Positions 33,754 through 61,577 of a stretch of DNA of 64,000 nucleotides are shown piece by piece. Made by a program: the position numbers and the translations under genes. The number at the start of each line of letters is the position of its first letter. Position 1 is the first letter of the stretch. The notes beneath the pieces were generated by a model, which searched no databases, had not been told where the DNA came from, and saw nothing but the letters and a program-made list of their open reading frames with translations. The stretch is from Gemmatimonadales bacterium (GTDB lineage: Bacteria > Gemmatimonadota > Gemmatimonadetes > Gemmatimonadales > GWC2-71-9): NCBI GenBank assembly GCA_044869265.1, contig JBIOXD010000050.1:42369-106368 (forward strand). The letters are read 5' to 3'.

Positions 33754-34787
33754 AGTGCCTCGGCCAATACGGCAGCGAGGAGCTGCGGGTTCACGTTGCC
33801 CTGCGCCAGGTCTCGCGCGTCCATCACCTGCGCGATCGCCTCGACGAGTTTCTCCGTATCGTGACCCAGCCTCGCTTCGGCCCGCAGCCGTTCCGCCAGC
33901 GAATCCAGCATGTCGGTGAAGCCACCGCGCGCCTGAAATGGCACCTGACCAAGCGCGTACAGCAAGGGGGCTTCGGTGAAACGCGTCGCCAAATCCAGCT
34001 TGCCGGAACGGCCCCCATCGTATGCAAAGAGCTTGCCAATGCACCCATCTGCAGCGCTAACTCGTTGTGCCAACTCATCTTTGTCTTTGACACCGAGCGC
34101 TTGCTGCGCGAATGCTGTCACGTCACTGTCGGCGATTCGCGCCACACGAACCAGCACAACACGAGAAAGAACCGTCGGGAGCAGGGCATTGGGATCTGCG
34201 GCAGTGAGAATGATCACCGAGTCCGCAGGCGGCTCCTCAAGCGCCTTAAGCAGCGCATTGGCCGCGACTTCCGTCCCCAACTGCGGAATCAGACGCTCCG
34301 CGTCACCCACTATGAAGACCTTGCGCGTGCCGACAGCCGGCGTCAGCGCAAGCCGACTCAACAGCAGCCGTACCGCAGCGATCGGGTAGCTGGCCAGGCC
34401 AGCTACGGGCGCGTACAGCGGCTCCTCGCGCCTTGCTGCCATCTCTACTGCCAATGCGTCTGCGGCGAGATCGATCTGCTTATCGACATCGCCACTGCTC
34501 CCGGACCCACCCCGTTTGCCCAGCTCAATCGGCACAAACCAATGCACGTCCGGATGCTGCAACGTCAGCACCATACGGCAGGAGCGGCATTCGCCGCAGG
34601 GCTCCAGCGAGGGCCCCTCCCTAGGTGCTTGGCATTGGATCAGTTGGGCCAGCCACAGCGCGAGACGCTGCTTACCGACTCCACGAGGTCCGGTTAGCAA
34701 CAACGCTTGAGGCAGCTTTCCGGAGGCGTGGGCGCCCGCCAGTCTGGTCTTGACCCCTTCGTGCCCCATGAGGGGCGGTAAAGGCAT
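33750..34787 (-). CDS. holB: DNA polymerase III subunit delta'
   Basis: LPQALLLTGPRGVGKQRLALWLAQLIQCQ...CGECRSCRMV...HPDVHWF and KALEEPP motifs. Start set to MPLPPLMGHE (34787). Confidence 0.8.
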   Translation of the reverse strand: MPLPPLMGHEGVKTRLAGAHASGKLPQALLLTGPRGVGKQRLALWLAQLIQCQAPREGPSLEPCGECRSCRMVLTLQHPDVHWFVPIELGKRGGSGSSGDVDKQIDLAADALAVEMAARREEPLYAPVAGLASYPIAAVRLLLSRLALTPAVGTRKVFIVGDAERLIPQLGTEVAANALLKALEEPPADSVIILTAADPNALLPTVLSRVVLVRVARIADSDVTAFAQQALGVKDKDELAQRVSAADGCIGKLFAYDGGRSGKLDLATRFTEAPLLYALGQVPFQARGGFTDMLDSLAERLRAEARLGHDTEKLVEAIAQVMDARDLAQGNVNPQLLAAVLAEAL

Positions 34788-48174: not shown

Positions 48175-50450
48175 GATCGCTCGGGTGTTGGCCGCGCGTG
48201 GCGGCGATGCTCTAAGGCGTCCACGGCGGCTATCACCGCCATGTTCACGATATCGGGAACTTCCGACAACCTTTGCAAGACATGGACCGGTTGGTCCATC
48301 CCCACAAGGATGGGGCCAATCGCCTGGGCGTCGCCAAGGCGGGCAAGCAGCTTGTAAGCGATATTTGCGGCGTCTAAGTCTGGGAATATCAAAACATTAG
48401 CTGGCCCCCGCAGCTTGGCAAATGGGTACACGCGCGTCAGGATGCGCTCTACCACGGCTGTGTCGGCTTGCATTTCGCCATCCAGCTGCAGCTCGGGCTC
48501 ACGCTCGTGCATCAGTGCGACGGCGCGCTGCACTTTTGCTGCAGCAGCGTGCTTGACCGACCCGAAGTTCGAGAAAGACAGCATCGCAACCCGCGGCTCG
48601 ATGCCGAGCCGGCTGACGAACTTGGCGGTCGCGGAGGCGATCTCGGCCAGCGTCTCGGCGTCCGGTTCGATGTTCACCGTGGTGTCGGCGAAGAAAAACG
48701 TCTGCTGGCGGACGATCATCATATAGATGCCGCTGGCGTGCTTGCGGCCGGGCTCCACGCCGATCACTTCGAGGGCAGGGCGTACCGCATCGGGATAATC
48801 GATCTCCTCTCCAGCGACCAGCGCATCGGCGCGGCCGCCCCGCAGCATCAGCAGACCGTAATACATCGGATCGAGCACGCGACGCTGGGCTTCGCGCAAC
48901 GTGATGCCACGCCGCTGCCGCCGCTCCCACAGCTCGCGTCCCAGTTGCTCACGATCGGCGGCGGTGGCGGGATTGACCAGCTCGAGTTCCTCGAGGGTGA
49001 GCGAGGCGTCATCAGCCTGGCGGCGGATCGCGTCGAGGTCGCCCAGGAGGATGGGTCGCGCGATGCCGTCATCGGCCAATATGCGCGCCGCGCGCAGGAT
49101 TCGGGGATCGTCGCCTTCCGGAAACACGATCCGTGGGGGGTCCTGCTGCGCCCGGCTGATGAGCCCGCGCATGACCTGTCGCTCGGGTCCCAGCCGCGCT
49201 TCCAGCTCGGCGCGATATTCCTCCACGTCGACAATGCGTCCCGCGATGCCGGTCGCGACCGCCGCCCACGCCACCGCCGGCGCCACCCAGAGCAGCACCC
49301 GCGGATCGAAGGGTTTGGGAATCAGGTAGTCGGGGCCGAACTTGAGCTTCTCGATCCCGTACGCCCGGGTGACGGACTCCGGGACCTCTTCTTTGGCGAG
49401 CGCGGCCAGCGCCCGCGTCGCCGCCATCTCCATCTCTTCGTTGATCTTTTTCGCCCGGACATCGAGCGCGCCGCGGAAGATGAAGGGGAAGCCCAGGACG
49501 TTGTTCACCTGGTTGGGGAAATCGGAGCGGCCCGTCGCCACAATTGCGTCAGGCCGAGCCTTCTTCGCCTCGTCGGGCATGATCTCGGGAGTCGGATTGG
49601 CCAGTGCGAAGACGACGGGACGTTTCGCCATGCCTTGCAGCATGTCGCCCGTCACGATCCCGCCGACCGACAATCCCACGAACACGTCCGCACCCTGCAA
49701 TGCCTCCGCCAGGGAGCGTGCTTTCGTCTCGCTCGCGAAGCGCTGCTTGAACTCGTCGAGGTCCTCGCGGCCCTTGTAGATCACGCCCTTGTGATCGCAC
49801 ATCACGATGTTGTCGCGCACGACGCCGAGCCGCACGTAATGCTCGGCGGTGGCGATCGCGGCTGCACCTGCGCCGGCGAACACAATCTTGATCTTGGCGA
49901 GATCCTTCTTGACCAGAATCAAAGCGTTGAGCAACGCCGCGCCGGAGATGATCGCGGTGCCGTGCTGATCGTCGTGAAAGACGGGAATGCTCAGCGTGGC
50001 GCGCAGCTTCTGTTCGATGTAGAAGCAGTCGGGGGAGCGGATGTCCTCGAGATTGATGCCGCCGACCGTTGGCTCCAGCAGCTGGCAGAACCGGATCATG
50101 TCCTCGGGTTTCTCCGATCCGACCTCGAGGTCGAATACGTCGATGTCCGCGAAGGTCTTGAAGAGAATCCCTTTGCCTTCCATGACCGGCTTGCCGGCCA
50201 GCGCGCCGATGTTTCCGAGTCCGAGGACCGCCGTCCCGTTAGTGACGACAGCCACGAGGTTGCCCTTGGCGGTGTAGACGTAGGCGTCCTCGGGGCGCTT
50301 GGCGATCTCCAGGCACGGCTCCGCCACGCCTGGCGTGTAAGCGAGGGAAAGGTCCCGCTGGTCCTTGAACGGCTTTGTTGGCGTGACCTGGATCTTCCCA
50401 GGGCGGCCCCGCGCGTGATAGTCGAGGGCCTCCTGGCGGCGGCTAGACAA
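48171..50450 (-). CDS. maeB: NADP-dependent malic enzyme (malic enzyme domain plus PTA-like C-terminal domain)
   Basis: ALDYHARGRPGKIQVTPTKP...LSLAYTPGVAEPC...VVTNGTAVLGLGNIGALAGKPVMEGK. 759 aa with a phosphotransacetylase-like C-terminal half. Confidence 0.95.
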
Positions 50451-50530
50451 GGACAGAAGTCCTTTCTTGGGAAGGGGTTATGCTAAGGCGGCGTGACTTG
50501 GGCTGTCAAGATGGAGGCTCGAATTGTAAT

Positions 50531-50881
50531 ATGCCGCCAATGCGCAAACGCCGGTTGATGGTGCGTGGCCCGCTTCTCCTGCTGGCGCTGCTGCAGCTCG
50601 GCGTGCCTTCAGCGGCAGCTTGGGCGGACGCTCGCGCGGGCGCAGAACAAGCGGGACCGGCACACGTCGAATCGCTTTCCGCGAGCGGATGCGCCCGCAT
50701 CCACCCGCCCGACTGTGCCTTCCACCGCTTCCTCACCGCACCACGCGCACTGTCGCGCACGGTTGCCTTCGGAGTACGGCTTGCCCTCCGTGTCCGGTGG
50801 ACGCCGAGTGCGCCCGCGGCTGCGCCATCATGGTTCAAGCTTAGTCTCCCGGATTCCCGCGCCCCTCCCTCGCCCGCCTGA
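50531..50881 (+). CDS. Small secreted Cys/His-motif protein (paralog of 57677..58018)
   Basis: ORF 50480..50881. MPPMRKRRLMVRGPLLLLALLQLGVPSAAAWA signal. Motif VE-x6-C-x3-H-x3-C-A-x-H-x-F-L-T and a C-terminal SRAPP tail. Lies directly upstream of a TonB-dependent receptor. Confidence 0.45.
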   Translation: MPPMRKRRLMVRGPLLLLALLQLGVPSAAAWADARAGAEQAGPAHVESLSASGCARIHPPDCAFHRFLTAPRALSRTVAFGVRLALRVRWTPSAPAAAPSWFKLSLPDSRAPPSPA

Positions 50882-50984
50882 GTGACGGCGCCGCGACCCG
50901 CGGCGACCCAATCCCAAATGATCTGACTGGCGCCACGCGCTCTCAAGCAGCGTGGGCGCCTGGGACTATCACCAGGAGAGTGCC

Positions 50985-53210
50985 ATGTACGCTCTTGTAT
51001 TGATCGCGGCATTGGTGGGCCCAAGCACTGGAGTTGTGTCCGGGCGTGTGACCACGCCTGCCGGTGCGCCCATCGCCGAGGTCCAGGTGACCGTGCCCGA
51101 GCTGCGTCGATCAACGACGACAGACAGCACAGGTCGTTACACCATCACCGATGTTCCGGCCGGTTCGTTCACCCTCACGTTCCAACGCATCGGCTACGCA
51201 CCGGCTGTGCGGCGCTTTACTACCTCGGGCGGTGATGTGACGGCTGACGTCACGATGAGGGAGTCGGTCGTCGAGTTGACGGGCATTCAGGTGACCGCCA
51301 GCGCCAACGCCACGAGCGCGCTCAACTCGCCGCAACCCACCAGCATCGTGGCTGGTGACGACCTCCGCCGGGCTCAGTCCCCAACCCTGGGCGAAACGTT
51401 GCAAGGCGTCGCCGGCGTGCACAGCTGGAGCACGGGTGTCGGTATCGGCAAGCCGGTCATTCGTGGTCTCACCTCGAATCGCGTGCTCGTGCTCGATGAC
51501 GGGCAGCGGCTGGAAACGGCTCAGTGGGGCGACGAGCACAGTCCGAACGTCGAGACGGCAACCGCTGAGCGGATCGAGGTCATTCGTGGGCCGGCGAGTG
51601 TGCTCTATGGGTCCGATGCCTTGGGCGGAGTGGTGAATGTCGTTCAGAAGGATCTGCCGGATGCAGCGGGAAGTCGCGGCTTCGTACGTGGGTCCGTGAG
51701 TGCCGCTTATGGTTCGGCGAACGCGATGAAAGATGGATCCCTCGATCTCGAAGGCGCGAGCGGTAAGTTGGGTTTCCGTGGCGCCTTCAGCGGCCGCAGC
51801 AGCACCAACGTTCGTACGCCCTATTACACGTTGTGGAACAGCGGCAACGAGGCTGTCGCGGGCAGTGGGACCGTCGGCACACGCAGTTCCTGGGGATCAG
51901 TCTCGGCGTCGTTCTCCCAACGCAACGAGAAAGTCGAGCTGACCGACGAGGAGCCAGCGGCCACGCCGCTGCAGCGCATTGAGACGAGCCACGGCCGGAC
52001 GGATCTGACCCTACCGGTCGGCAGCGCCCGACTGGAGGTCTCGGCGGGCTACGCACGCAATCGGCGCCGCGAATTCGAGGACAAAGCAGATCCCACGGTT
52101 GCGCTCGGCCTGCTGACGCAGACCTACCTCGCGGACGTGCATTACCATCACGCGCCGGTCGGTGCGTTCTCCGGGTTGATCGGCTTCTCAGGTGTCCGCA
52201 ACGTGTTCGATAAGTTTGGCGCGGAAACGCTCATCCCTCCGAGCACCGCGAACAACGCCGCCGTGTACGCATTCGAGCAGACCGAAGGTCGGCGCGTCAA
52301 CGTCTCGATCGGCGCGCGCTATGACTACCGGCAACTGTCGGTGGACGCGGACACGGTTCTGGGAGTGGCGACGCAGGACAAGAATTGGAGCTCGGTGACC
52401 GGCAACCTCGGTCTGCTGCTGCACTTGAGCGAGCCGGCGGCGCTGGTGCTGAATATCGGGCGTGGATACCGCGCCCCATCGTCGTTCGATCTCTACACAA
52501 ACGGCGTGCATGAAGGCACCACAGCGTTCGAGCGCGGTAACCCCAACCTCACGACGGAAAAATCCCTCAATACGGACCTCGCGCTGCGGGCGCAAACCGC
52601 GCGGCTGTCGTTTGAGGTGGGGACGTTCCTCAACCTGATTCAGGATTACATCTATACGGTGCCGAGCGGCACCATCGATAGCGCGTCTGGTTTCGAGATC
52701 TTCGACGTGACGCAAGGCGACGCGCGCTTGACGGGGGTCGAGACCGCACTGCAATGGCACCCAATGGACTATCTGCACCTCCAGGGGACAGCAGACTATG
52801 TCCAAGGGCAGAACACCAGCACCGATGACCCGCTTCCGAACATGCCGCCCTTCCGGGCGACCTGGCTGGTCCGTCTGGAGGGCGGCCAACGGTCTCAGAG
52901 CACCTTGCAGAATCCCTACTTCTCCATTGGTGGCGAGGTGAATGCGCGCCAAACGCGCATGGATCCGGCCGAAGAGCAGTTCTACGCGGGTGCCCTTGGA
53001 GGATCGGGGTATCAATCTCGTGCCTATACGCTCGTGAATTTCGGCGCCGGTGTGGCGTGGGTCATCGGGTCACACACACTCCTGATGGATCTCTCGCTGC
53101 GCAATGCCTTCAACGAGCGCTACGCGGATTACATGAGTCGCATCAAGACCAACGCGCTCGATCCGGGGATGGGCCGTTCATTCCTCGTGCGGGTAACCGC
53201 CGAGTTTTAA
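50985..53210 (+). CDS. TonB-dependent receptor with carboxypeptidase-regulatory N-domain (metal uptake inferred from context)
   Basis: ATG at 50985 after AGGAGAG. GVVSGRVTTPAGAPIAEVQVTV (CarboxypepD_reg), plug (GKPVIRGL...VLVLDDGQRLE...IEVIRGPASVLYGSDALGGVVNVV), barrel ending FLVRVTAEF. Confidence 0.85.
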   Translation: MYALVLIAALVGPSTGVVSGRVTTPAGAPIAEVQVTVPELRRSTTTDSTGRYTITDVPAGSFTLTFQRIGYAPAVRRFTTSGGDVTADVTMRESVVELTGIQVTASANATSALNSPQPTSIVAGDDLRRAQSPTLGETLQGVAGVHSWSTGVGIGKPVIRGLTSNRVLVLDDGQRLETAQWGDEHSPNVETATAERIEVIRGPASVLYGSDALGGVVNVVQKDLPDAAGSRGFVRGSVSAAYGSANAMKDGSLDLEGASGKLGFRGAFSGRSSTNVRTPYYTLWNSGNEAVAGSGTVGTRSSWGSVSASFSQRNEKVELTDEEPAATPLQRIETSHGRTDLTLPVGSARLEVSAGYARNRRREFEDKADPTVALGLLTQTYLADVHYHHAPVGAFSGLIGFSGVRNVFDKFGAETLIPPSTANNAAVYAFEQTEGRRVNVSIGARYDYRQLSVDADTVLGVATQDKNWSSVTGNLGLLLHLSEPAALVLNIGRGYRAPSSFDLYTNGVHEGTTAFERGNPNLTTEKSLNTDLALRAQTARLSFEVGTFLNLIQDYIYTVPSGTIDSASGFEIFDVTQGDARLTGVETALQWHPMDYLHLQGTADYVQGQNTSTDDPLPNMPPFRATWLVRLEGGQRSQSTLQNPYFSIGGEVNARQTRMDPAEEQFYAGALGGSGYQSRAYTLVNFGAGVAWVIGSHTLLMDLSLRNAFNERYADYMSRIKTNALDPGMGRSFLVRVTAEF

Positions 53211-53213
53211 CAT

Positions 53214-53837
53214 CTAGCGCGGCGGGGGTGCGATCGTCGGCGGAGTGTGATACAGGACCTGCACCGTCTGACGATCGCGCCCACTTGGCACCGTCACCTG
53301 CACCGTGGAGTACATAACGTCTTCCGGAGCGGGACTTTCCTGCAACAATCCCAGTGTGTGACCCAACTCGTGGACCGTGACGCGCTTCACACAAGCAGCG
53401 ACTTGCTCCGGGGTATAGCCTTGGGCCGTGGTGATGCGGATCTGCATACGGATCGGTTCGGCGAGCGACGTGCCCGCGCTATCGAACAGCAACGTCGTGA
53501 CGCCGTCGCAGGCGAATACCGCTGCGCCTGAATCGGGAGGGACATCCGGCGGCACGCTGTCGTACCAGGTGACGATGACGTCCGCGACATTTGAATCGGA
53601 TACCAGCTCTCCCGTGAACTCACCATACAGCAGTTGTGTCTCCCAAATGCCTATTCCCTTCGTCACGAGGTCGCGCATGTGACCGCGTGAGTCCGCGTAG
53701 TAGCGCACCGGTAGCCGGTTTCGCGGCCAGCGGAACACATCGCCGGCATTGTCGAAACCATACCACGCGGTTCGGTCCGGTATGGTTGCTTCAGTGCACG
53801 CGACCATGAGCACGGCTCCCATGAGTGCGCGTCTCAT
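53214..53837 (-). CDS. Putative zinc-metalloprotease-like lipoprotein (HELGHTLGL)
   Basis: Signal MGAVLMVAC. Metzincin-like VTVHELGHTLGLLQ motif. ATGA overlap with the upstream gene. Confidence 0.55.
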   Translation of the reverse strand: MRRALMGAVLMVACTEATIPDRTAWYGFDNAGDVFRWPRNRLPVRYYADSRGHMRDLVTKGIGIWETQLLYGEFTGELVSDSNVADVIVTWYDSVPPDVPPDSGAAVFACDGVTTLLFDSAGTSLAEPIRMQIRITTAQGYTPEQVAACVKRVTVHELGHTLGLLQESPAPEDVMYSTVQVTVPSGRDRQTVQVLYHTPPTIAPPPR

Positions 53838-54484
53838 GGCGCGCTTCGTCCCTTGCCGAGAATCCGCGCTCCAAACCCCAGCGTCACGCGATGTACCAGC
53901 TGCGCGGATGTGAAGCCGTCGGCATGCAGCGCGGGAGTCGAAAACCGATGCAAGTCATAGCGCAGCGACACCCCGAAGTCGTGGGCGGGCCCTCCCAGCT
54001 TGGTCGGGGACCAGTAGAGACCGGCCGTGCCGACGGCCCAGAGCCCGGAGCCGCCTCGAAACAATCCGGTTTCATCAGCGGGCAGATACTTGATGCCACC
54101 GATCCCCACGCGCGCCGCCAGACTGGGACTGACTTCACGACGCGCCCCGACCGTGAAGGCGATCACCGTCACAGAGTTGAATTTCGCCGCCTCACCGCTC
54201 TCGTGGCGCTGTAATGCCGCCCACGACACGTCGAGAACGGCTTCGGGTGTCCAGGGGCCGTTCGTGCGCTCGCCGATGCTCAGCGCGAGCACCGGCCCGA
54301 TAGCGGGCTTCGCATCGACGGGCTCGACGATCACGTCGTGCACGAGAGCCGTCGTATAGCGAGCGCCGACGGTTGCGTGAACGGAAGCCTGGGCGGCCGG
54401 ACGGCCCGACGGCCAGACGGCCAGGGCGGTCAGCAGAATGAGCGTGTGTGCGGCCGTCCGGCCGTCCGACCGTTCGACCGTCAA
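53834..54484 (-). CDS. Small outer-membrane beta-barrel protein (OmpW/porin-like, family not resolved)
   Basis: TTG start overlapping the znuB-like stop (TTGA). Signal LILLTALAVWPSGRPAAQA. Alternating beta-strand pattern. Confidence 0.5.
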   Translation of the reverse strand: MTVERSDGRTAAHTLILLTALAVWPSGRPAAQASVHATVGARYTTALVHDVIVEPVDAKPAIGPVLALSIGERTNGPWTPEAVLDVSWAALQRHESGEAAKFNSVTVIAFTVGARREVSPSLAARVGIGGIKYLPADETGLFRGGSGLWAVGTAGLYWSPTKLGGPAHDFGVSLRYDLHRFSTPALHADGFTSAQLVHRVTLGFGARILGKGRSAP

Positions 54485-55311
54485 GGGATCACCGCCTTCT
54501 CACCCACGCCGAGTTTTCGCAAGACTCCCGCGCCGACGAGCACCAGGGCGTACATACAGACAATCAGCGGGCCGGTTGGAAAGTTGCCGACGTAGGAGAC
54601 GTAGAGGCCGAGCAGTGATGCCAGGGCACCGGTGCCCCATGAAATCAGCACCATCTTACGAATATCTCTGGTGAACAGGAATGCGACGACTGCCGGTACG
54701 ACCAGCATCGTAAAGACCAGCAGCACGCCCGCGACCGGGACCGAAATCGTGACAGCGACGCCGAAGGATAGGTAGAACAGAAAGTCCCAGGCACGGATGC
54801 GCCAGCCTGCGCGCTCAGCCTCCTCGGGACGGAACGAGATCATCAGGAACTGCTTGCGCAAGGCAAAATGGAGCAGTCCCAGCGCCGCATAGGCTGCCCC
54901 TTTCTTGAGAATGGTGGGCCACGTGATCCAAATGATCGAGCCTTCCAGTACGTCGTGGAGTGCTTCGGCGCCGCGGGGCGCCTTGTCGGCGACGAGGATC
55001 GCCGCGGCCGAAGCCGCGACGTAGACGATGCCAATGATCGCCTCGTGTGGCACGCGGCCCTTGCCGCGCGTGCGGGTAATCGCGAACAACGCCGCGCCGA
55101 TGCAGGTGAACACGAGAGAAAAGATGAATGCCGTTTGCGAGTCGGGAGCGACATGGTAGAGCAGCGCCACGACGCTCCCCAATCCCGCCATCTGTGCCAG
55201 GGAGAGGTCCACGAAGATGACCTCGCGTGCGATCACATGCAGGCCGAGGTACGAGTGGATGGCGACCAGCACCATACACGCGACAAACGGCGCGAACATG
55301 AATTCCAACAC
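54481..55311 (-). CDS. znuB: Metal ABC transporter permease (ABC-3 family, ZnuB/TroC-like)
   Basis: MLEFMFAPFVACMVLVAIHSYLGLHVIAREVIFVDLSLAQMAGLG, typical ABC-3 N-terminus. About 8 TM segments. Confidence 0.85.
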   Translation of the reverse strand: MLEFMFAPFVACMVLVAIHSYLGLHVIAREVIFVDLSLAQMAGLGSVVALLYHVAPDSQTAFIFSLVFTCIGAALFAITRTRGKGRVPHEAIIGIVYVAASAAAILVADKAPRGAEALHDVLEGSIIWITWPTILKKGAAYAALGLLHFALRKQFLMISFRPEEAERAGWRIRAWDFLFYLSFGVAVTISVPVAGVLLVFTMLVVPAVVAFLFTRDIRKMVLISWGTGALASLLGLYVSYVGNFPTGPLIVCMYALVLVGAGVLRKLGVGEKAVIP

Positions 55312-55332
55312 CGTGGTGTCTCCTGCGTTGGT

Positions 55333-56376
55333 TTAGCGACCCGTGCTGGCCGTCTCTGTAAACGCCCGCGCGAGCGAGCCGACCAGATTGTCGATCAGTT
55401 CGAAGAACGTGTTCACGCCCGGCGCGCCTCCGGCCTGGGACGGTACGATGACCGCCTTCGCGCCGGTGCGCTCAGCGACCTGGCGAATCTGGTTGTGATC
55501 GAAATACCCGGGCGACAACAAGACTCGCACCTGCCGCTGGCGCATCAGCTCGATTACCTCGCGCACGTGCTTCGGCGTCGGCGGAATCCCCGGCTTGGGC
55601 TCGATGTAGTCGACGCATCGGATCCCGAACTCCCGCGAGAAGTAGTCCCACTCCTTGTGGTAGCAGGCCATCTCTTTGCTGCGATACACGAATCCCTGCT
55701 TGAGCCAGCCTCCCAGGCGATCAAACAGGGGGCTGCCTCTATAGCGCCGCTGATTTAGAAAGTCGAACAACTTTCCTTGGCGGTCGAGATCGGCCAGTGT
55801 CTGCCCGCCCAGAATTGTGACGAGCTCCTCGCCGTACAACGCACGATAGATACGCTCCTCAAAATCCTTTTCGCGGGCTGTAAAGTATTCGGCGTTCTCG
55901 GGCGACACACGCTTCAAACCGGTGAGAATGTTCCGAGCGATTTGGACGCCGTTGAGCGGCTCCGTCCAGATATGTGGATTGCCGTACACGTGGATGTCAC
56001 CCTGTGTTCGGGAGTAACTCGCGGGCACATCGAGGAGCGGGATCCCAGTGTATGCGGCAACGTAGCCCGGACCACCTTCCGTGACTCGCGGATTGCCGGC
56101 TTTATCGAGCAGGGCAGGGACCCACAGCTCGAGATCGAGACCGGTGGTAACGAAAACGTCGGCTTCCGCGAGTAATGGCACGAAGCTGGGCTTCGGCTGT
56201 ACGTAGTGCGGGTTCTCGTCGCCCCTGGCAATCGAGTTGACCGTGCCGCGCTCTCCGACGATCTCACGGGCGATAGCGGCATAGGTCGTCAGCGAGGTGA
56301 CGACTCTTACTGGAGCTGCGCGCGGCGGCGTTCCACCGCCGGACAGCCCAAGGAGAAACGGAATGATGTATAGCAT
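55333..56376 (-). CDS. znuA: Metal ABC transporter substrate-binding protein (TroA/ZnuA cluster)
   Basis: VVTSLTTYAAIAREIVG...ENPHYVQPKPS...ADVFVTTGLDLELW...GNPHIW. The ATG at 56376 overlaps the upstream stop (TGATG). Confidence 0.85.
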   Translation of the reverse strand: MLYIIPFLLGLSGGGTPPRAAPVRVVTSLTTYAAIAREIVGERGTVNSIARGDENPHYVQPKPSFVPLLAEADVFVTTGLDLELWVPALLDKAGNPRVTEGGPGYVAAYTGIPLLDVPASYSRTQGDIHVYGNPHIWTEPLNGVQIARNILTGLKRVSPENAEYFTAREKDFEERIYRALYGEELVTILGGQTLADLDRQGKLFDFLNQRRYRGSPLFDRLGGWLKQGFVYRSKEMACYHKEWDYFSREFGIRCVDYIEPKPGIPPTPKHVREVIELMRQRQVRVLLSPGYFDHNQIRQVAERTGAKAVIVPSQAGGAPGVNTFFELIDNLVGSLARAFTETASTGR

Positions 56377-57620
56377 CAGTAGGTCTCGTGTTTGTGTGGA
56401 CCGATGGCCCAGACTGCCTGGAGCAGCAGCCGATCGCGACCGGCGCCTGTCGGGGTGAGCCGTCGAGTGTATTCCGCGCGCAGGAACACCCACTCGCTCT
56501 GCCACCAAGTGAGGGTGGGAACAATCTGGCGGGTGATGTCATTCGGCCCTTCAGGGGCCTCGACGTAGTCGTAACGCGCGCCGAGGATCCAGCTCTGCCC
56601 TAAGCGGTACGTCGTACCGACGTAGGCACCGAGGCGGGTGTCACCGGTGCCCGCACGCTCCTTCTTGAGCCCGTAGAGCTCCGCGCGAACTGTCCAGTCG
56701 CGGTAGAGCGCGCGGTCGGGCGGCCGCCACGTGAATCGGAAATCGACTCCGCCCATGGTCGTCTTGAGTGCAGTATCGGGATTGGTTCCGTAGATCCCCG
56801 TCGCCCCAATCTGCATGTAGGTCGACCTGCTCAACTGCCAGAAATTGTTCAAATGCAACAGGTAGGAGGGGCGGTTTCCGCCCTCGAACAGAGCGTCATT
56901 GGAGCCGGCGGTCACCTGAGCGTACAGCTCGTGCGTTCCGAGGCCGCCGAACGCGCGGTACAGCGCTGCGCCTGCCCCCGCCAACCCTTCCTCGCCCAGA
57001 AAGGTCGTCAAGACCAGCGGATACTCCGTCTCCGGAACCGCATGCAGATGCCAGCGATTGAGTTCCCCCAATTGCTGGCGGAAGACGCCGAGATCGAGCC
57101 TGAGCCGGGCCGGGAGGCCGGTATAGTAGAAGTAGCCCTCTTCGATTTCGATCCCGCCTTCATGTACCCCAGCGAAGATCTTGGTGTGTGAGTAGGGGTC
57201 GAGCGCAGCCTGAAACGAAAACTCGACTTCATGCAGCTCGAAGTTGTCGCGCTGCTCTCCGTCGGTTTGAATGGCGGCGTGGAGATCGCCTGTCACGCTG
57301 ATCTCCGGATTGAGCTGCGACTGGCTTCGTTCCCGCCCCACAAACCGCTGGCCGGCGGTATCGACCGCCGCCGTCGTGTCCCGGCCGATGACGCCGGCCG
57401 CTGCCGCGCGTAGAGCGGCGATGTCTTCGTCCTGTGCCCGAGTGCTATCCGGACGTGCGCCTGCACGTGCCAGTGCCGCACGAAGCGAATCCAACCGAGC
57501 GCGGAGCGCACGCAGCTCAGCGTCGAGCGAGTCGAGCTGTCGCTGCGAGGGTTGCTGCGCGTCCAGACGCAACGTCAAGCACGCGGCTGCAAGGAGCAGC
57601 ATGCAAAGAGTGCGTGTCAT
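56376..57620 (-). CDS. Porin-like outer-membrane beta-barrel with N-terminal coiled coil
   Basis: Signal MTRTLCMLLLAAACLTLRLDA. Coiled coil QLDSLDAELRALRARLDSLRAAL. Beta-rich remainder ending ...PHKHETY. Family not recognised. Confidence 0.55.
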   Translation of the reverse strand: MTRTLCMLLLAAACLTLRLDAQQPSQRQLDSLDAELRALRARLDSLRAALARAGARPDSTRAQDEDIAALRAAAAGVIGRDTTAAVDTAGQRFVGRERSQSQLNPEISVTGDLHAAIQTDGEQRDNFELHEVEFSFQAALDPYSHTKIFAGVHEGGIEIEEGYFYYTGLPARLRLDLGVFRQQLGELNRWHLHAVPETEYPLVLTTFLGEEGLAGAGAALYRAFGGLGTHELYAQVTAGSNDALFEGGNRPSYLLHLNNFWQLSRSTYMQIGATGIYGTNPDTALKTTMGGVDFRFTWRPPDRALYRDWTVRAELYGLKKERAGTGDTRLGAYVGTTYRLGQSWILGARYDYVEAPEGPNDITRQIVPTLTWWQSEWVFLRAEYTRRLTPTGAGRDRLLLQAVWAIGPHKHETY

Positions 57621-57676
57621 AATCAGTGTCCTCTCCTGTTGAGACCGAGGAGCGTCGAAGGTCAACTACAACGACG

Positions 57677-58018
57677 TCAGGAAAGGGCGAGGGGTGGGGC
57701 TCGGGGGGCTCGGGCGGGTGTCAGCCGGACGATGGGTGGGACCGATACAACCGGTTGCGGATGCGTGAGGTGCCCGCCGGCAACGGGCGTTTCGATAATG
57801 ACGACGTGCTGGGGAACCACCCGCGTGGTCATGTAGTTGCACAGCGCGCAGCGCAGCTCGTCATGGAGGACCGGACAGCGCCCAGTGTGATTCGCTTCAA
57901 CACCGGCTTGCGCCACCACCACGTCGCGCGCGTGCGCGAGCGTGACGGCACCGCCGCCAAGCACCTGAAGAGCCAGGAGGATCGCCAGCAGCACGCGCGT
58001 CAGCATGGTCTCCTTCAT
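57677..58018 (-). CDS. Small secreted Cys/His-motif protein (paralog of 50531..50881)
   Basis: Signal MLTRVLLAILLALQVLGGGAVTLAHA. Motif VE-x6-C-x3-H-x4-C-A-x-C-x-Y-M-T and a C-terminal ARAPRAPP tail. The ATG overlaps the nfo stop (ATGA). Confidence 0.45.
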   Translation of the reverse strand: MKETMLTRVLLAILLALQVLGGGAVTLAHARDVVVAQAGVEANHTGRCPVLHDELRCALCNYMTTRVVPQHVVIIETPVAGGHLTHPQPVVSVPPIVRLTPARAPRAPPLALS

Positions 58019-58881
58019 ACGCCAACCACTGCGCGGCTGTTGCCACGGGCGTAGGCGCGCAGCCGCCGCAACATGCGGCGGTCGTGCCGCAGCGGGTCAT
58101 CCCGCTTGGGCGTCTCGATAATCTTAACAACATCCTGCAGCGCGGCGTCCCGCATGATGCGCCGAAAGGGTTCCGGCCCGATCCTGCCGTCGCCAATCCA
58201 TTCATGGCGATCGACGCGCGATCCGGCAGCCGCGCGCGAGTCGTTGAGATGCAAGCACTTAAGTAGATCGAACCCGATCACACGATCGAATTCTTCCCAG
58301 ATCGCCTCCACACGCGTGAGATCGTACCCCACAGCGTGCAAGTGCGCCGTGTCGAGGCAAAACCCGACCCGCGTCCGAATCTCGTCAGGCAACGCGTTGC
58401 GGAGATCGCGGAGCTGCTCGAACGTCGCACCGAGCGCGGTCCCCGATCCGGCCGTGCCTTCAATCCACACCTGCAGATCGCCGGGCATGGAGGCCAAACA
58501 CACGGCGTATGCGCCGGCGTTGCGCTCCAATCCGGCATCCCGATCGTCCATGTAGTTGCCGGGATGCGATACCACGGCGCGCAACCCGAGCGCGCGCGAT
58601 CGCTCCAGCTCGTTCTTGAAGCTCCGCATGCTGCGCGCGCGCAGCACGGGATCGGGTGACGCCAGATTGATCAAGTAGCTATCGTGTGCGATAACCGCTT
58701 CGAGGCGATGACGGGTCACCTCGGTGCGGAAGCGCTCGACCATGGTCGTCTCGAGCGCCGGCTCGCGCCACTGATTGGGCGTCTTGGTAAACAGCTGGAT
58801 GGCGGTCGCGCGCAGCGCCCGGCCGCGCTGGGGTGCGGTCGCCACACCGCCTTGACTCGACACGTGCGCACCGAGGATCAC
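58015..58881 (-). CDS. nfo: Deoxyribonuclease IV (endonuclease IV)
   Basis: ILGAHVSSQGG, AIQLFTKTPNQW, HDSYLINLAS, VSHPGN, CLDTAHL, LHLNDS motifs. The GTG at 58881 overlaps the pcm stop (GTGA). The remainder of the 472-aa ORF is a frame artefact. Confidence 0.9.
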   Translation of the reverse strand: MILGAHVSSQGGVATAPQRGRALRATAIQLFTKTPNQWREPALETTMVERFRTEVTRHRLEAVIAHDSYLINLASPDPVLRARSMRSFKNELERSRALGLRAVVSHPGNYMDDRDAGLERNAGAYAVCLASMPGDLQVWIEGTAGSGTALGATFEQLRDLRNALPDEIRTRVGFCLDTAHLHAVGYDLTRVEAIWEEFDRVIGFDLLKCLHLNDSRAAAGSRVDRHEWIGDGRIGPEPFRRIMRDAALQDVVKIIETPKRDDPLRHDRRMLRRLRAYARGNSRAVVGV

Positions 58882-59728: not shown

Positions 59729-60834
59729 TCAAGCGTCTTCTGGAATCGCCGCACCGAAAGCGCAATCAGAAGCAGCGCGAAGGCCAGCAGGATTGCCATT
59801 TCCCGCCACAGCTCGGGCACGCCGACTCCTTTCAGCAGGATGCCGCGCAGCACCTTGAGGAAATGCGTCAGCGGCAGGAACGCCCCGATCCATTGGAACA
59901 GCGCGGGCATCGCCTGCCGGGGAAACATGAAGCCCGAGAGCAGAATGTTGGGGAGTACGAAAAAGAAGCTTGCCTGCATCGCCTGCTGCTGGGTACGCAC
60001 GAGCGTCGAAATGAACAGGCCCATCGCCAGGCTGGCCACGATGAACAGGAGCGCGATCCCGTAGAACAACAACACGTTGCCGGTGAGCGGCACGTCGAAC
60101 ACAAACCGGCCGAGCAGCAGCACGGTGGTCATTTGGACGAGGCCGACGCCCACGTAGGGCGCGATCTTGCCGAGCATGAGCTCGGTTTTCGTGATCGGTG
60201 TGACGATGAGCTGCTCGAGCGTGCCCCGCTCGCGCTCGCGCACGATCGCCATCGCGGTCACCAGCACCATGGTCATCGTGAGGATGACGCCCACGAGGCC
60301 CGGCACGATGTAATTGGGGCTACGTAAACCGGGGTTGTAGCGCGGTCGCACCCGCGCTTCCAGCGGAAGCGCGGTGCGATGCGCCGCGGCAGACAGAATC
60401 GCGAGGTTGCGCATCTGCGCGACGCCCGCCGCGGCCGCAAGTGCGGCCTGGGACGACAGGGGATCGGACGCATCGACGATGACCTGGACCAGCGCGGTCG
60501 TGCCGCGGGCCAGGTCGCGCGGGAAGTCATACGGGATCGCGATTCCCGCCTGGGCGTCGCCCTTGGCGATCCATTCGTCCAGCGCCTCGCGGCTATCGAC
60601 GTGCGCCACGATGCGAAAGTTGCCCGTGTTCTCGAAGTCAGCGATCAGGTCCCGGCTCGTCGGCGTGCGCGATTCATCGAAGACGACGGTGGGGATGTGG
60701 CGCACGTCCGTCTGGATTGCGAACCCGAACAGCAGCAGCTGGATGACGGGGACGCCAACCATAATTCCCAACGTGAGGCGGTCCCGGCGCATCTGAATGA
60801 ATTCCTTGCGGAACATCGGGATGAAGAGCTTCAC
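59725..60834 (-). CDS. ABC-2 type exporter permease
   Basis: FRKEFIQMRRDRLTLGIMVGVPVIQLLLFGFAI, a large extracytoplasmic loop, then 5 C-terminal TM segments. The GTG at 60834 overlaps the ATPase stop (GTGA). Confidence 0.85.
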   Translation of the reverse strand: MKLFIPMFRKEFIQMRRDRLTLGIMVGVPVIQLLLFGFAIQTDVRHIPTVVFDESRTPTSRDLIADFENTGNFRIVAHVDSREALDEWIAKGDAQAGIAIPYDFPRDLARGTTALVQVIVDASDPLSSQAALAAAAGVAQMRNLAILSAAAHRTALPLEARVRPRYNPGLRSPNYIVPGLVGVILTMTMVLVTAMAIVRERERGTLEQLIVTPITKTELMLGKIAPYVGVGLVQMTTVLLLGRFVFDVPLTGNVLLFYGIALLFIVASLAMGLFISTLVRTQQQAMQASFFFVLPNILLSGFMFPRQAMPALFQWIGAFLPLTHFLKVLRGILLKGVGVPELWREMAILLAFALLLIALSVRRFQKTLD

Positions 60835-61577
60835 AGGCCCTGCTCCTGCTCGTCCCGCTGCTGCAGGATGATGAACGCGTCTTCGAGGTCTGCGCCGCCC
60901 ACCTGCCTGGCGACCTCGTCTGGTGTCCCCAGGGCGATGAGATGGCCGTGGCTGAGGAGCGCGAGTCGGCCGCACCGTCCCGCCTCATCCATGTAGTGCG
61001 TCGTGACGATGACGGTCGTGCCACGCTCCCCCAACTGTTTGATCGTCTGCCAGAACCCCCGTCGCGCAGCCGGGTCCACGCCAGCGGTGGGCTCATCGAG
61101 AAACAACACGCGAGGTTGGTGCATCAGGGCGCACGCAAGACCGAGCCGCTGTTTCCAGCCGCCCGACAACGTTCCGGCGAGCTGGTTGAGCCGCCGGTCC
61201 AGCCCCAAGAACGCGACGACTTCGGCAATGCGGCCGCGGCGACTGGGTCCCTCCAGCCCGTAGATCCCGCCGTAGAAATCCATGTTCTCGGCGACCGTCA
61301 GATCCTCGTACAAGCCGAACCGCTGCGACATGTAGCCGATCAGCTCTTTGATCTTGTCGGGTGATTCGCGCACGTCGACGCCCGCGACGATGGCCGTTCC
61401 TTCGGTTGGAGCGATCAACCCACACAGCATCCGGATCGTGGTGGTCTTGCCCGAACCATTCGGACCGAGCAACCCAAAGACTTCACCCGTGGCAATGGTG
61501 AGGTTGAGATCGCGCACCGCGACGATCGGGCCGAAGTGCCGGGTGAGGTGGCGCGTTTCGACAGCGACGGCGCTCAC
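60831..61577 (-). CDS. ABC transporter ATP-binding protein (ABC-2 exporter partner)
   Basis: GLLGPNGSGKTTT, LSGGWKQRL, LLFLDEPTAGVD. Confidence 0.92.
   Translation of the reverse strand: MSAVAVETRHLTRHFGPIVAVRDLNLTIATGEVFGLLGPNGSGKTTTIRMLCGLIAPTEGTAIVAGVDVRESPDKIKELIGYMSQRFGLYEDLTVAENMDFYGGIYGLEGPSRRGRIAEVVAFLGLDRRLNQLAGTLSGGWKQRLGLACALMHQPRVLFLDEPTAGVDPAARRGFWQTIKQLGERGTTVIVTTHYMDEAGRCGRLALLSHGHLIALGTPDEVARQVGGADLEDAFIILQQRDEQEQGL

Follow-up and report, generated by a model that had tools for sequence, protein, structure and literature searches.

What do two small open reading frames (ORFs) do when each stands just ahead of an outer-membrane protein gene in a putative metal-uptake island? 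The question is raised by a stretch of 64,000 nucleotides (nt) from a Gemmatimonadales bacterium (contig JBIOXD010000050.1 of assembly GCA_044869265.1, positions 42,369 to 106,368 of the forward strand), which we call the window and within which all coordinates are counted. A first-pass annotation had taken the two products for paralogous secreted proteins with a shared Cys/His metal site, reminiscent of the DUF2946 family. We find conserved genes and, with a probability that we put at roughly 0.7, regulatory upstream ORFs (uORFs) of the CruR/CutF (DUF2946) class, that is, exported nascent-peptide metal sensors coupled to ribosome arrest at a RAPP motif. The two are as follows.

57677..58018, minus strand: uORF-A, 113 amino acids (aa), putative CruR/CutF-like leader peptide (from homologues and codon-position pattern)
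50531..50881, plus strand: uORF-B, 116 aa, putative paralogous leader peptide (from homologues)

Judged by their conservation, both are translated coding genes and not noise of GC-rich DNA. Homologues formed 462 database clusters for uORF-A and 120 for uORF-B, a Pfam domain was absent from all of these clusters, and the organism-labelled matches of both families were nearly all Gemmatimonadales metagenome-assembled genomes. Our locus sample was drawn from genomes for family A (46 loci) and from metagenomes for family B (80 loci), with 47 and 82 ORFs (129 altogether). Entropy at the third codon position was 1.10 in family A, against 0.67 and 0.49 at positions 1 and 2, and 1.06 in family B, against 0.51 and 0.52; because third-position entropy is thus about twice that of the other two in both families, translation is the natural reading. 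In a near-identical contig (L127), the gene caller started uORF-A at M5 (nt 58006), giving 109 aa, and left uORF-B uncalled (9837-10370); no identical protein to uORF-B was present in the protein collection, where the top match was 61% identical. The first-pass annotation had itself raised the prospect of spurious ORFs lacking homologues with the Cys/His pattern, which conservation refutes. The window's GC content of 64.5%, its many overlapping ORFs and the missing gene call for uORF-B do favour artefacts, but the conserved clusters, joined by 730 representatives of a wider family, the codon-position pattern typical of a coding gene, and motifs that are invariant while the RAPP codons vary synonymously make such an explanation almost certainly wrong. 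Elsewhere in the window, an ORF at 34316..34624 (plus strand) also ends in RAPARAPP*; it is rich in Arg, Ala and Pro, lies where long ORFs overlap on both strands, and looks like an off-frame artefact.

Compared directly by BLASTP, uORF-A and uORF-B gave no significant match (E 0.41), so by that test alone their resemblance could be chance. Aligning the family A profile with the family B profile using hhalign gave a probability of 93.5% and an E value of 2.2e-7 over 103 columns, by which the two are distant paralogues, as had been proposed. In a joint alignment of both families, R8, Q18, A24, A28, E41, C48, H52, C57, A58 and R106-A-P-P109 (uORF-A numbering) are invariant. Because residues of the Cys/His motif that the first-pass annotation had seen in both proteins are among them, that motif is the conserved core of the families and not a chance match. 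The sequence blocks and RAPP-containing tails that it had quoted are present in both proteins as well, although RAPP is not terminal in uORF-A, where R106-P109 stands 4 residues before the end (LALS*); in uORF-B it stands 3 before the end (SPA*). The signal peptides assigned to both are supported by A-x-A sites, seen by eye, and by a confident AlphaFold helix.

Both families share one layout, namely an export signal, a Cys/His block, a spacer of fixed length, RAPP or RGPP, 3-4 further residues and the stop codon. In the window its parts are placed as follows.

57929..58018, minus strand: export signal of uORF-A, residues 1-30, probable A-H-A cleavage before R31 (alignment and AlphaFold helix)
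57839..57898, minus strand: candidate metal-sensing block of uORF-A, E41-x2-H44-x3-C48-x3-H52-x4-C57-A-L-C60, of CxxC type (alignment)
57704..57838, minus strand: spacer of uORF-A, residues 61-105, 45 aa here, variable in sequence and fixed in length
57692..57703, minus strand: RAPP codons R106-P109 of uORF-A, predicted ribosome-arrest site
50531..50626, plus strand: export signal of uORF-B, residues 1-32, probable A-W-A cleavage before D33 (alignment, by eye)
50663..50725, plus strand: candidate metal-sensing block of uORF-B, H45-x-E47-x6-C54-x3-H58-x3-C62-A-F-H65, of CxxH type (alignment)
50726..50857, plus strand: spacer of uORF-B, 44 residues, variable in sequence and identical in length in 82/82 ORFs
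50858..50869, plus strand: RAPP codons R110-P113 of uORF-B, RAPP in 82/82 ORFs

Each export signal has, by eye, a basic n-region, a hydrophobic core and an A-x-A site, with cleavage expected between AHA and RD in uORF-A and between AWA and DAR in uORF-B. Q18 and G21-G22 are invariant in the family A alignment, as are Q22 and P26 in that of family B. In the AlphaFold model of uORF-A, helix 2-33 is the sole confident element and the remainder is disordered; with a predicted local distance difference test score (pLDDT) of 58.6, the model was too poor to warrant a fold search. Within the candidate metal-sensing block, E41, H44, C48, H52 and C57 are invariant and C60 nearly so among 30 family A sequences, and H45, E47, C54, H58 and C62 are invariant and H65 nearly so in family B. 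The block ends in CxxC in 46 of 47 family A ORFs and in CxxH in 80 of 82 family B ORFs, the other two (L040, L042) having CxxC.

Insertions and deletions are almost absent, in either family, from the spacer that separates the Cys/His block from RAPP. From CxxC to RAPP it measures 43 residues at 29 family A loci, 44 at 16, 42 at one and 45 at one (the window copy), and from CxxH/C to RAPP it measures 44 throughout family B. An arrest motif follows in 129/129 ORFs, as RAPP in 45 and RGPP in two of family A and as RAPP in all of family B, with 4 residues after it in 40 of 47 family A ORFs and 3 in 82 of 82 family B ORFs. The two RGPP variants are at L011:6310-6321 and L029:1221-1232. In both families, third positions of the RAPP codons are free to vary, which indicates selection on the amino acids, whereas the fixed last codons, CTC TCC, indicate selection on the RNA.

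Kinship with DUF2946 emerged through intermediates. Pfam and NCBIfam scans of both window proteins returned only noise, a C2H2 zinc-finger match at E 0.09, and an HMM check against DUF2946, as suggested in the first-pass annotation, placed neither at the threshold of PF11162 (gathering cut-off 23.7 bits). Close relatives matched this model weakly and below threshold, in 10 of 30 cases in family A (E >= 0.1) and 1 of 30 in family B. A search with the joint A+B profile retrieved the 730 representatives at 50% clustering, whose consensus (ADARL..H.ESH....C...H..DCALC, about 44 residues, RAPP) is of CxxC type with C60 nearly invariant. PF11162 matched 40 of 66 of these wider relatives, and one of them (P0387) exceeded the cut-off, with 26.2 bits over model positions 8-117 of 117. 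By hhalign, the wider relatives match family A at a probability of 97.6% (E 3e-12) and family B at 99.95% (E 4.5e-38). On this evidence, in which homology to DUF2946 and CruR is bridged through database relatives and not by alignment of the CruR proteins themselves, the window proteins are divergent, below-Pfam-threshold members of a DUF2946/CutF-like superfamily. The proposed link to DUF2946 proteins beside TonB-dependent receptors thus stands as remote homology, although the window proteins and their close families fall short of the threshold. The NCBIfam model of CzcI also matched five wider relatives weakly (best E 0.006). A published table of CruR homologues lists no Gemmatimonadetes (PMC9426467), and the main text of the CutF survey mentions neither Gemmatimonadota nor zinc (PMC9973294).

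Proteins of this kind have been characterized as regulators. RAPP and RGPP are established ribosome-arrest motifs, for example in ApdA and ApdP (PMC7897499, PMC10951233); RAPP is strongly avoided in bacterial proteomes outside arrest peptides, and RGPP is the other motif with robust arrest, unrelieved by elongation factor P (EF-P) (PMC12992588). CruR of Bordetella pertussis (Bp2923, DUF2946/PF11162) is a copper-responsive upstream regulator (Roy et al. 2022, PMC9426467), in which stalling at RAPP keeps the operon on, copper lifts the stall and the output is Rho-dependent termination. Its RAPP lies 3 residues from the C-terminus, its CxxC is invariant and needed for the Cu response, the 45 residues from CxxC to RAPP are conserved within 1-2 across >2000 homologues, and an export signal occurs in >95% of the family, although this signal is dispensable and sensing is claimed to be cytoplasmic (PMC9426467). 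CutF of the Rhodobacter capsulatus cutFOG operon is also a DUF2946 protein (Ozturk et al. 2023, PMC9973294; bioRxiv 10.1101/2025.02.05.636593). It stalls during co-translational export, whereupon a stem-loop shielding the cutO ribosome-binding site melts; it requires its Sec signal, and copper promotes the stalling (PMC9973294). Mature CruR and CutF are both undetectable (PMC9426467, PMC9973294).

Because RAPP is a known arrest motif and the full layout matches CruR and CutF, we read uORF-A and uORF-B as regulatory leaders. The disorder, the variable spacer of fixed length, the RGPP substitutions and a sequence complementary to the next gene's Shine-Dalgarno (SD) region in the last codons (anti-SD) fit arrest leaders. 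The first-pass idea of stable metal-binding proteins that might dock on the receptor or porin, which gave the RAPP tail no meaning, was not supported, related proteins having been published as regulatory uORFs with RAPP arrest (PMC9426467, PMC9973294, PMC12992588).

The RNA around the ends of the two uORFs suggests how their output could be read. Its elements are listed here.

57678..57686, minus strand: anti-SD CCUUUCCUG of uORF-A, made of the last codons and the first two stop-codon bases (family consensus CCUCUCCUG)
57653..57676, minus strand: predicted intergenic hairpin between anti-SD and SD of the uORF-A unit (from the fold; the window copy differs from the family)
57630..57638, minus strand: SD region CAGGAGAGG of the porin-like gene, ATG at 57620-57618
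50870..50881, plus strand: uORF-B tail SPA and stop (UCG CCC GCC UGA), atypical, the family having TLS* as ACG CUC UCC UGA (anti-SD)
50887..50908, plus strand: hairpin 1 of the uORF-B unit (GGCGCCGCG...CGCGGCG.CC), conserved (RNAalifold consensus and window fold)
50929..50960, plus strand: hairpin 2 of the uORF-B unit, containing GCGCUCUC, an alternative, weaker SD partner (folds)
50974..50980, plus strand: SD AGGAGAG of the TonB-dependent receptor gene, ATG at 50985

Both families end in ...CUC UCC UGA, and the two sense codons are nearly fixed though Leu and Ser have six codons each. At the family uORF ends, CUCUCCUG is perfectly complementary to CAGGAGAG, the SD region of the gene that follows. 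Over 45 (family A) and 55 (family B) non-redundant loci, the mean duplex energy of uORF tail and SD was -16.8 and -18.7 kcal/mol, respectively, compared with -8.6 and -8.8 kcal/mol for other windows of the same uORF, and at least 8 contiguous base pairs (bp) formed at 29 of the 45 and 43 of the 55 loci. RNAalifold recovered the anti-SD:SD helix in family B, with two hairpins in between. In family A it recovered the central hairpin only, MAFFT having mis-registered the SD in several rows; the named helices were counted instead, and 90% of their alignment cells are paired compared with 40-62% in slid controls. The pair flanking the invariant core is C:G in family A (10/14) and G:C in family B (26/30), a reciprocal change between the paralogous families. 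The window copy of uORF-A ends in CUU UCC UGA and pairs over 9 bp, one of them G.U, with CAGGAGAGG at 57630-57638 in both minimum-free-energy and centroid folds.

Between these two partners, the consensus intergenic hairpin of family A (GCGCUCCGC...GCGGAGCGC) shows compensatory changes in 4 of 7 pairs (alignment A4, columns 63-84). Its arms carry an SD-like GGAG and an anti-SD-like CUCC, and the hairpin might be part of a switch between alternative pairings. If the P site of the stalled ribosome holds Pro(3) of RAPP, the anti-SD falls at about nt +11 to +20 in family A and +8 to +17 in family B, which would place it within the ribosome's mRNA channel or at its entry. Masking a 24-nt footprint raised the predicted accessibility of the SD about twofold across the families, from 0.26 to 0.45 in A and from 0.18 to 0.34 in B. 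The intergenic regions are untranslated and 56-103 nt long. Over their final 30-60 nt, both uORFs are rich in C (57-60%) and poor in G (15-17%). No intrinsic terminator-like site was found near either uORF, and an Rfam search of 50000-58500 at E <= 1 found no riboswitch or leader.

The mechanism that we infer would combine the logic of CruR with the SD-shielding output of CutF. A ribosome translating either uORF would arrest when Pro(3) of RAPP occupies the P site and Pro(4) the A site; in uORF-A these would be Pro108 and Pro109, by analogy with toeprinting of CruR, for which arrest in vitro has the P and A sites occupied by the two Pro codons (Fujiwara et al. 2025, PMC12992588). The stalled ribosome would cover the next 12-15 nt, which hold the anti-SD, so that the porin-like gene (A) or the receptor gene (B) would have its SD free and be translated; the same ribosome may also keep Rho off the transcript. 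The Cys/His block would then lie 43-45 residues from the peptidyl-transferase centre, just past the exit tunnel. On binding metal, the nascent chain would fold or be pulled, arrest would be released and translation would terminate, whereupon the anti-SD:SD helix would re-form and the uptake genes would be switched off. This sign of response is borrowed from CruR and would suit genes for uptake; the reverse is also possible, as CutF demonstrates.

Several results weigh against the arrest-leader interpretation or parts of it. PF11162 matched neither window protein at E <= 1, and CxxC, invariant in CruR and required for its function, is lacking in family B. In the window itself, masking raised the unpaired probability of the uORF-A SD only from 0.005 to 0.18, a small gain because an intergenic CUCCU can substitute for the anti-SD. 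The window copy of uORF-B is without the family anti-SD tail, so that 4 contiguous bp at -9.1 kcal/mol (control level) are formed, and masking it brought almost no rise in SD accessibility; what is left is an interrupted remnant helix, CCUG.GUGA (50877-50885) with UCAC.CAGG (50969-50976), along with the alternative partner in hairpin 2, and this copy may be regulated differently or more weakly. By gene calls, an AP-endonuclease gene (Nfo) lies on the same strand 8 nt before uORF-A, which may therefore not be the first cistron of its transcript. Because the output is Rho-dependent in CruR and metal promotes stalling in CutF, sequence by itself reveals neither the route of the output nor its sign; arrest, metal binding and direction of response are all inferred. 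The assignment of zinc as the metal, discussed below, rests on sub-threshold family matches and on ligand rules for binding proteins of this class.

The genes following the two uORFs are listed below.

56376..57620, minus strand: porin-like outer-membrane protein, 414 aa, first gene after uORF-A
55333..56376, minus strand: ZnuA-family substrate-binding protein, 347 aa (PF01297, E 4.6e-42), its ATG overlapping the porin-gene stop
54481..55311, minus strand: ATP-binding cassette (ABC) family ABC-3 permease, ZnuB-like (PF00950, E 7.7e-34)
53834..54484, minus strand: 216-aa protein, working label OMP216 (its outer-membrane nature is only a label), no Pfam or NCBIfam match
53214..53837, minus strand: M10-like metzincin, last operon gene (PF00413, 27 bits against a cut-off of 24)
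50985..53210, plus strand: TonB-dependent receptor, ZnuD-like, 741 aa (CarboxypepD_reg, plug and barrel by Pfam), gene after uORF-B

The porin-like gene follows uORF-A at 40 of 46 genome loci, which are all of those with sequence beyond the uORF, and together with the ZnuA and ABC-3 genes at 32 of 46; the other family A loci end sooner or show a shorter run, and at none does a different gene follow. The 216-aa protein and the metzincin belong to the operon in part of the loci. After uORF-B, a TonB receptor of one of two types follows at 52 of 54 loci, and maeB, a malic-enzyme gene, is divergent upstream at 78 of 79. The A and B units are convergent in the window and in many genomes, and jointly form one island. 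At L040:5898-9921 and L042:5883-9867, a B-type uORF with CxxC (CALCHF) comes after an A-type operon (uORF, porin-like, ZnuA, ABC-3) and on its strand, an arrangement that may be closer to the ancestral one; behind the B-type uORF, L042 has a receptor-like ORF of 780 aa that matches receptors weakly, and in L040 no receptor match was found (automatic start call).

The porin-like protein had no Pfam or PDB sequence match, and its 1854 homologues are all named 'hypothetical'. In its AlphaFold model (pLDDT 67.6) a signal peptide and a coiled coil accompany a beta-barrel of about 17-18 strands, and Foldseek returned general porins (MOMP, OmpF, OprO) at a template-modelling (TM) score of about 0.45. 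His-rich motifs are invariant in the family, namely NRWHLH and, at the C-terminus, GPHKHETY, and these might bind metal. The operon at 53214..57620 (minus strand) is without an ABC ATPase (ZnuC); the sole nearby ABC ATPase (60831..61577) adjoins an ABC-2 type permease gene. The gap between maeB and uORF-B (50451..50530) is highly conserved together with the homologous L047-L126 regions, and holds a promoter-like TTGACA/TAGCAT on the minus (maeB) strand and a TAATAT few bases before the uORF-B ATG codons, a placement that would fit a leaderless or near-leaderless uORF-B transcript. No Fur/Zur-type palindromic operator was evident upstream of uORF-B among the conserved blocks.

Judged from the genes controlled, the metal sensed is most likely zinc. 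The best PDB match of the receptor is ZnuD (4rdr, E 6.9e-29; OprC 1.8e-11), and its best NCBIfam match is also ZnuD, at 181 bits far below the cut-off of that model (TonB-copper 69 bits). PDB matches of the ZnuA-like protein are mixed (YfeA, MntC, AdcA, ZnuA) and do not settle its metal. Aligned with YfeA, it has His at the third ligand position, where YfeA has Glu, and Pro where Mn/Fe-type proteins have the fourth-ligand Asp. Such a site, with His third and no Asp, is presumably of zinc type under the ligand rule for these binding proteins. Tentatively, and at somewhat less than even odds, uORF-A and uORF-B would be the first zinc-responsive nascent-peptide sensors, in which the Cu(I) CxxC was re-tooled to a Cys2His2-like Glu/His/Cys site and a zinc-acquisition island came under control by arrest and SD sequestration. 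The CxxC and CxxH paralogues might then differ in the zinc threshold or the compartment to which each is adjusted.

As the main alternative, the leaders could sense copper, with the neighbouring transporters importing copper or a copper chelate. Every characterized family member senses copper, CxxC is the classic Cu(I) motif needed for the response of CruR, and DUF2946 operons are overwhelmingly linked to copper. The receptor, however, is nearer ZnuD than OprC or TonB-copper by the E values and bit scores given above, and the operon has a ZnuA/ABC-3 importer whose binding protein carries the His3, no-Asp site. The second Cys has become His in family B, extra invariant Glu/His ligands make up a Cys2His2-like set, and the island holds none of the copper-specific genes looked for (PCuAC, CopC, YcnI, PepSY_TM, multicopper oxidase), which makes copper rather unlikely. 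A different output is a matter apart from the metal. The leaders might act through Rho-dependent termination, the stalled ribosome masking a Rho-utilization (rut) site and SD sequestration being secondary or irrelevant. The C-rich, G-poor uORF ends, the untranslated intergenic regions and the lack of an intrinsic terminator all suit Rho, a mechanism demonstrated for the closest characterized relative heading a TonB-receptor operon (PMC9426467). The C-rich stretch is, however, short and largely due to the RAPP codons and the anti-SD, and a rut site needs neither the fixation of CUC UCC UGA nor its covariation with the SD flank. We consider Rho unlikely to be the principal route, and the Rho and SD routes are not mutually exclusive.

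Two further explanations dispense with metal-controlled arrest. Under one, the products would be stable, secreted, small metal-binding proteins (metallochaperones or partners of the receptor or porin), with RAPP as a docking or processing motif, for which the probable signal peptides with A-x-A sites, the conserved Cys/His ligands and the co-occurrence with outer-membrane and periplasmic uptake components could be cited. It sits poorly with a confident prediction confined to the N-terminal helix and with a mature chain of which half is a fixed-length spacer without sequence conservation. RAPP is avoided in bacterial proteomes except in arrest peptides (PMC12992588) and can here be replaced by RGPP, the C-terminal codons are constrained as RNA, and mature CruR and CutF escape detection; stable proteins are accordingly improbable. 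Under the other, the uORFs would be secretion monitors of the SecM, ApdA or ApdP type, released by Sec activity and coupling outer-membrane protein synthesis to export. The unusually conserved probable signal peptides (Q18 and G21-G22 in A; Q22 and P26 in B), their pairing with RAPP and the Sec signal required by CutF are in keeping with it, but no sec or yidC gene lies downstream of either uORF, and the invariant Cys/His block and the homology to metal-responsive DUF2946 proteins would be left unexplained. We regard secretion monitoring as a very improbable account.

As metal-sensing arrest leaders, two unannotated or 'hypothetical' ORFs become a testable regulatory device. CruR/CutF-type arrest peptides would extend to a poorly studied soil phylum, to sequences missed by Pfam DUF2946 and to an operon type (porin-like with ZnuA/ABC-3; ZnuD-like receptor) that points to zinc over copper. 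If true, zinc would join the metals sensed co-translationally, so far shown for copper only, and would fill a gap noted by Roy et al., who state that no riboswitch is known for Cu or Zn (PMC9426467). The families also suit the open question of how ligand binding to the nascent chain frees RAPP arrest, since a length-conserved spacer and natural RAPP/RGPP and CxxC/CxxH variants make them clean natural material, and their output is directly readable because the anti-SD sits in the last two codons and the stop. For annotation, we propose to flag as leader peptides those small secretory ORFs that close with R[AG]PP and 3-4 further residues just before a transporter gene.

Among known systems, CruR is alike in being a small ORF before a TonB-dependent transporter gene, with an N-terminal export signal and CxxC, in keeping about 45 residues between CxxC and a RAPP that stands 3 residues before the C-terminus, in the predicted disorder of its mature part and in its remote homology through intermediates. 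It differs in that the window proteins fall below the Pfam threshold and come from Gemmatimonadota, and in that their families carry extra invariant Glu/His/Cys ligands, with CxxH in family B. The genes controlled resemble zinc uptake here and are copper genes in CruR, the intergenic region is 56-103 nt here and 162 nt in CruR, and the anti-SD lies inside the last uORF codons here, whereas CruR has been shown to work through Rho. CutF shares the exported nascent peptide, a Cys motif, a C-terminal proline stalling motif, a mature protein that is not detectable (a CutF feature) and a predicted stem-loop between uORF and next gene that shields the SD of the latter. It has CxxxC and an EF-P-sensitive PPP in place of CxxC/CxxH and RAPP/RGPP, and controls a detoxifying multicopper oxidase, whereas a porin-like protein, ZnuA, ABC-3 and a TonB-dependent receptor are found here; copper promotes its stalling, and the opposite sign would be expected for an uptake operon.

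ApdA, ApdP, ApcA and SecM (RAGP) are likewise small secretory or membrane proteins with RAPP/RGPP near the C-terminus (Sakiyama 2021, PMC7897499; Morici 2024, PMC10951233; Fujiwara 2024, PMC10987492), arrest with Pro-tRNA in the A site and control the downstream gene via mRNA structure. Unlike the window uORFs, they monitor Sec/YidC activity, precede secretion-machinery genes and are without a Cys/His block. CzcI- and CopL-type ORFs are small metal-responsive ORFs before efflux or oxidase genes and fall in the same broad CutF-like superfamily (PMC9973294), but CzcI is without a proline motif, and such ORFs control export or detoxification, not uptake.

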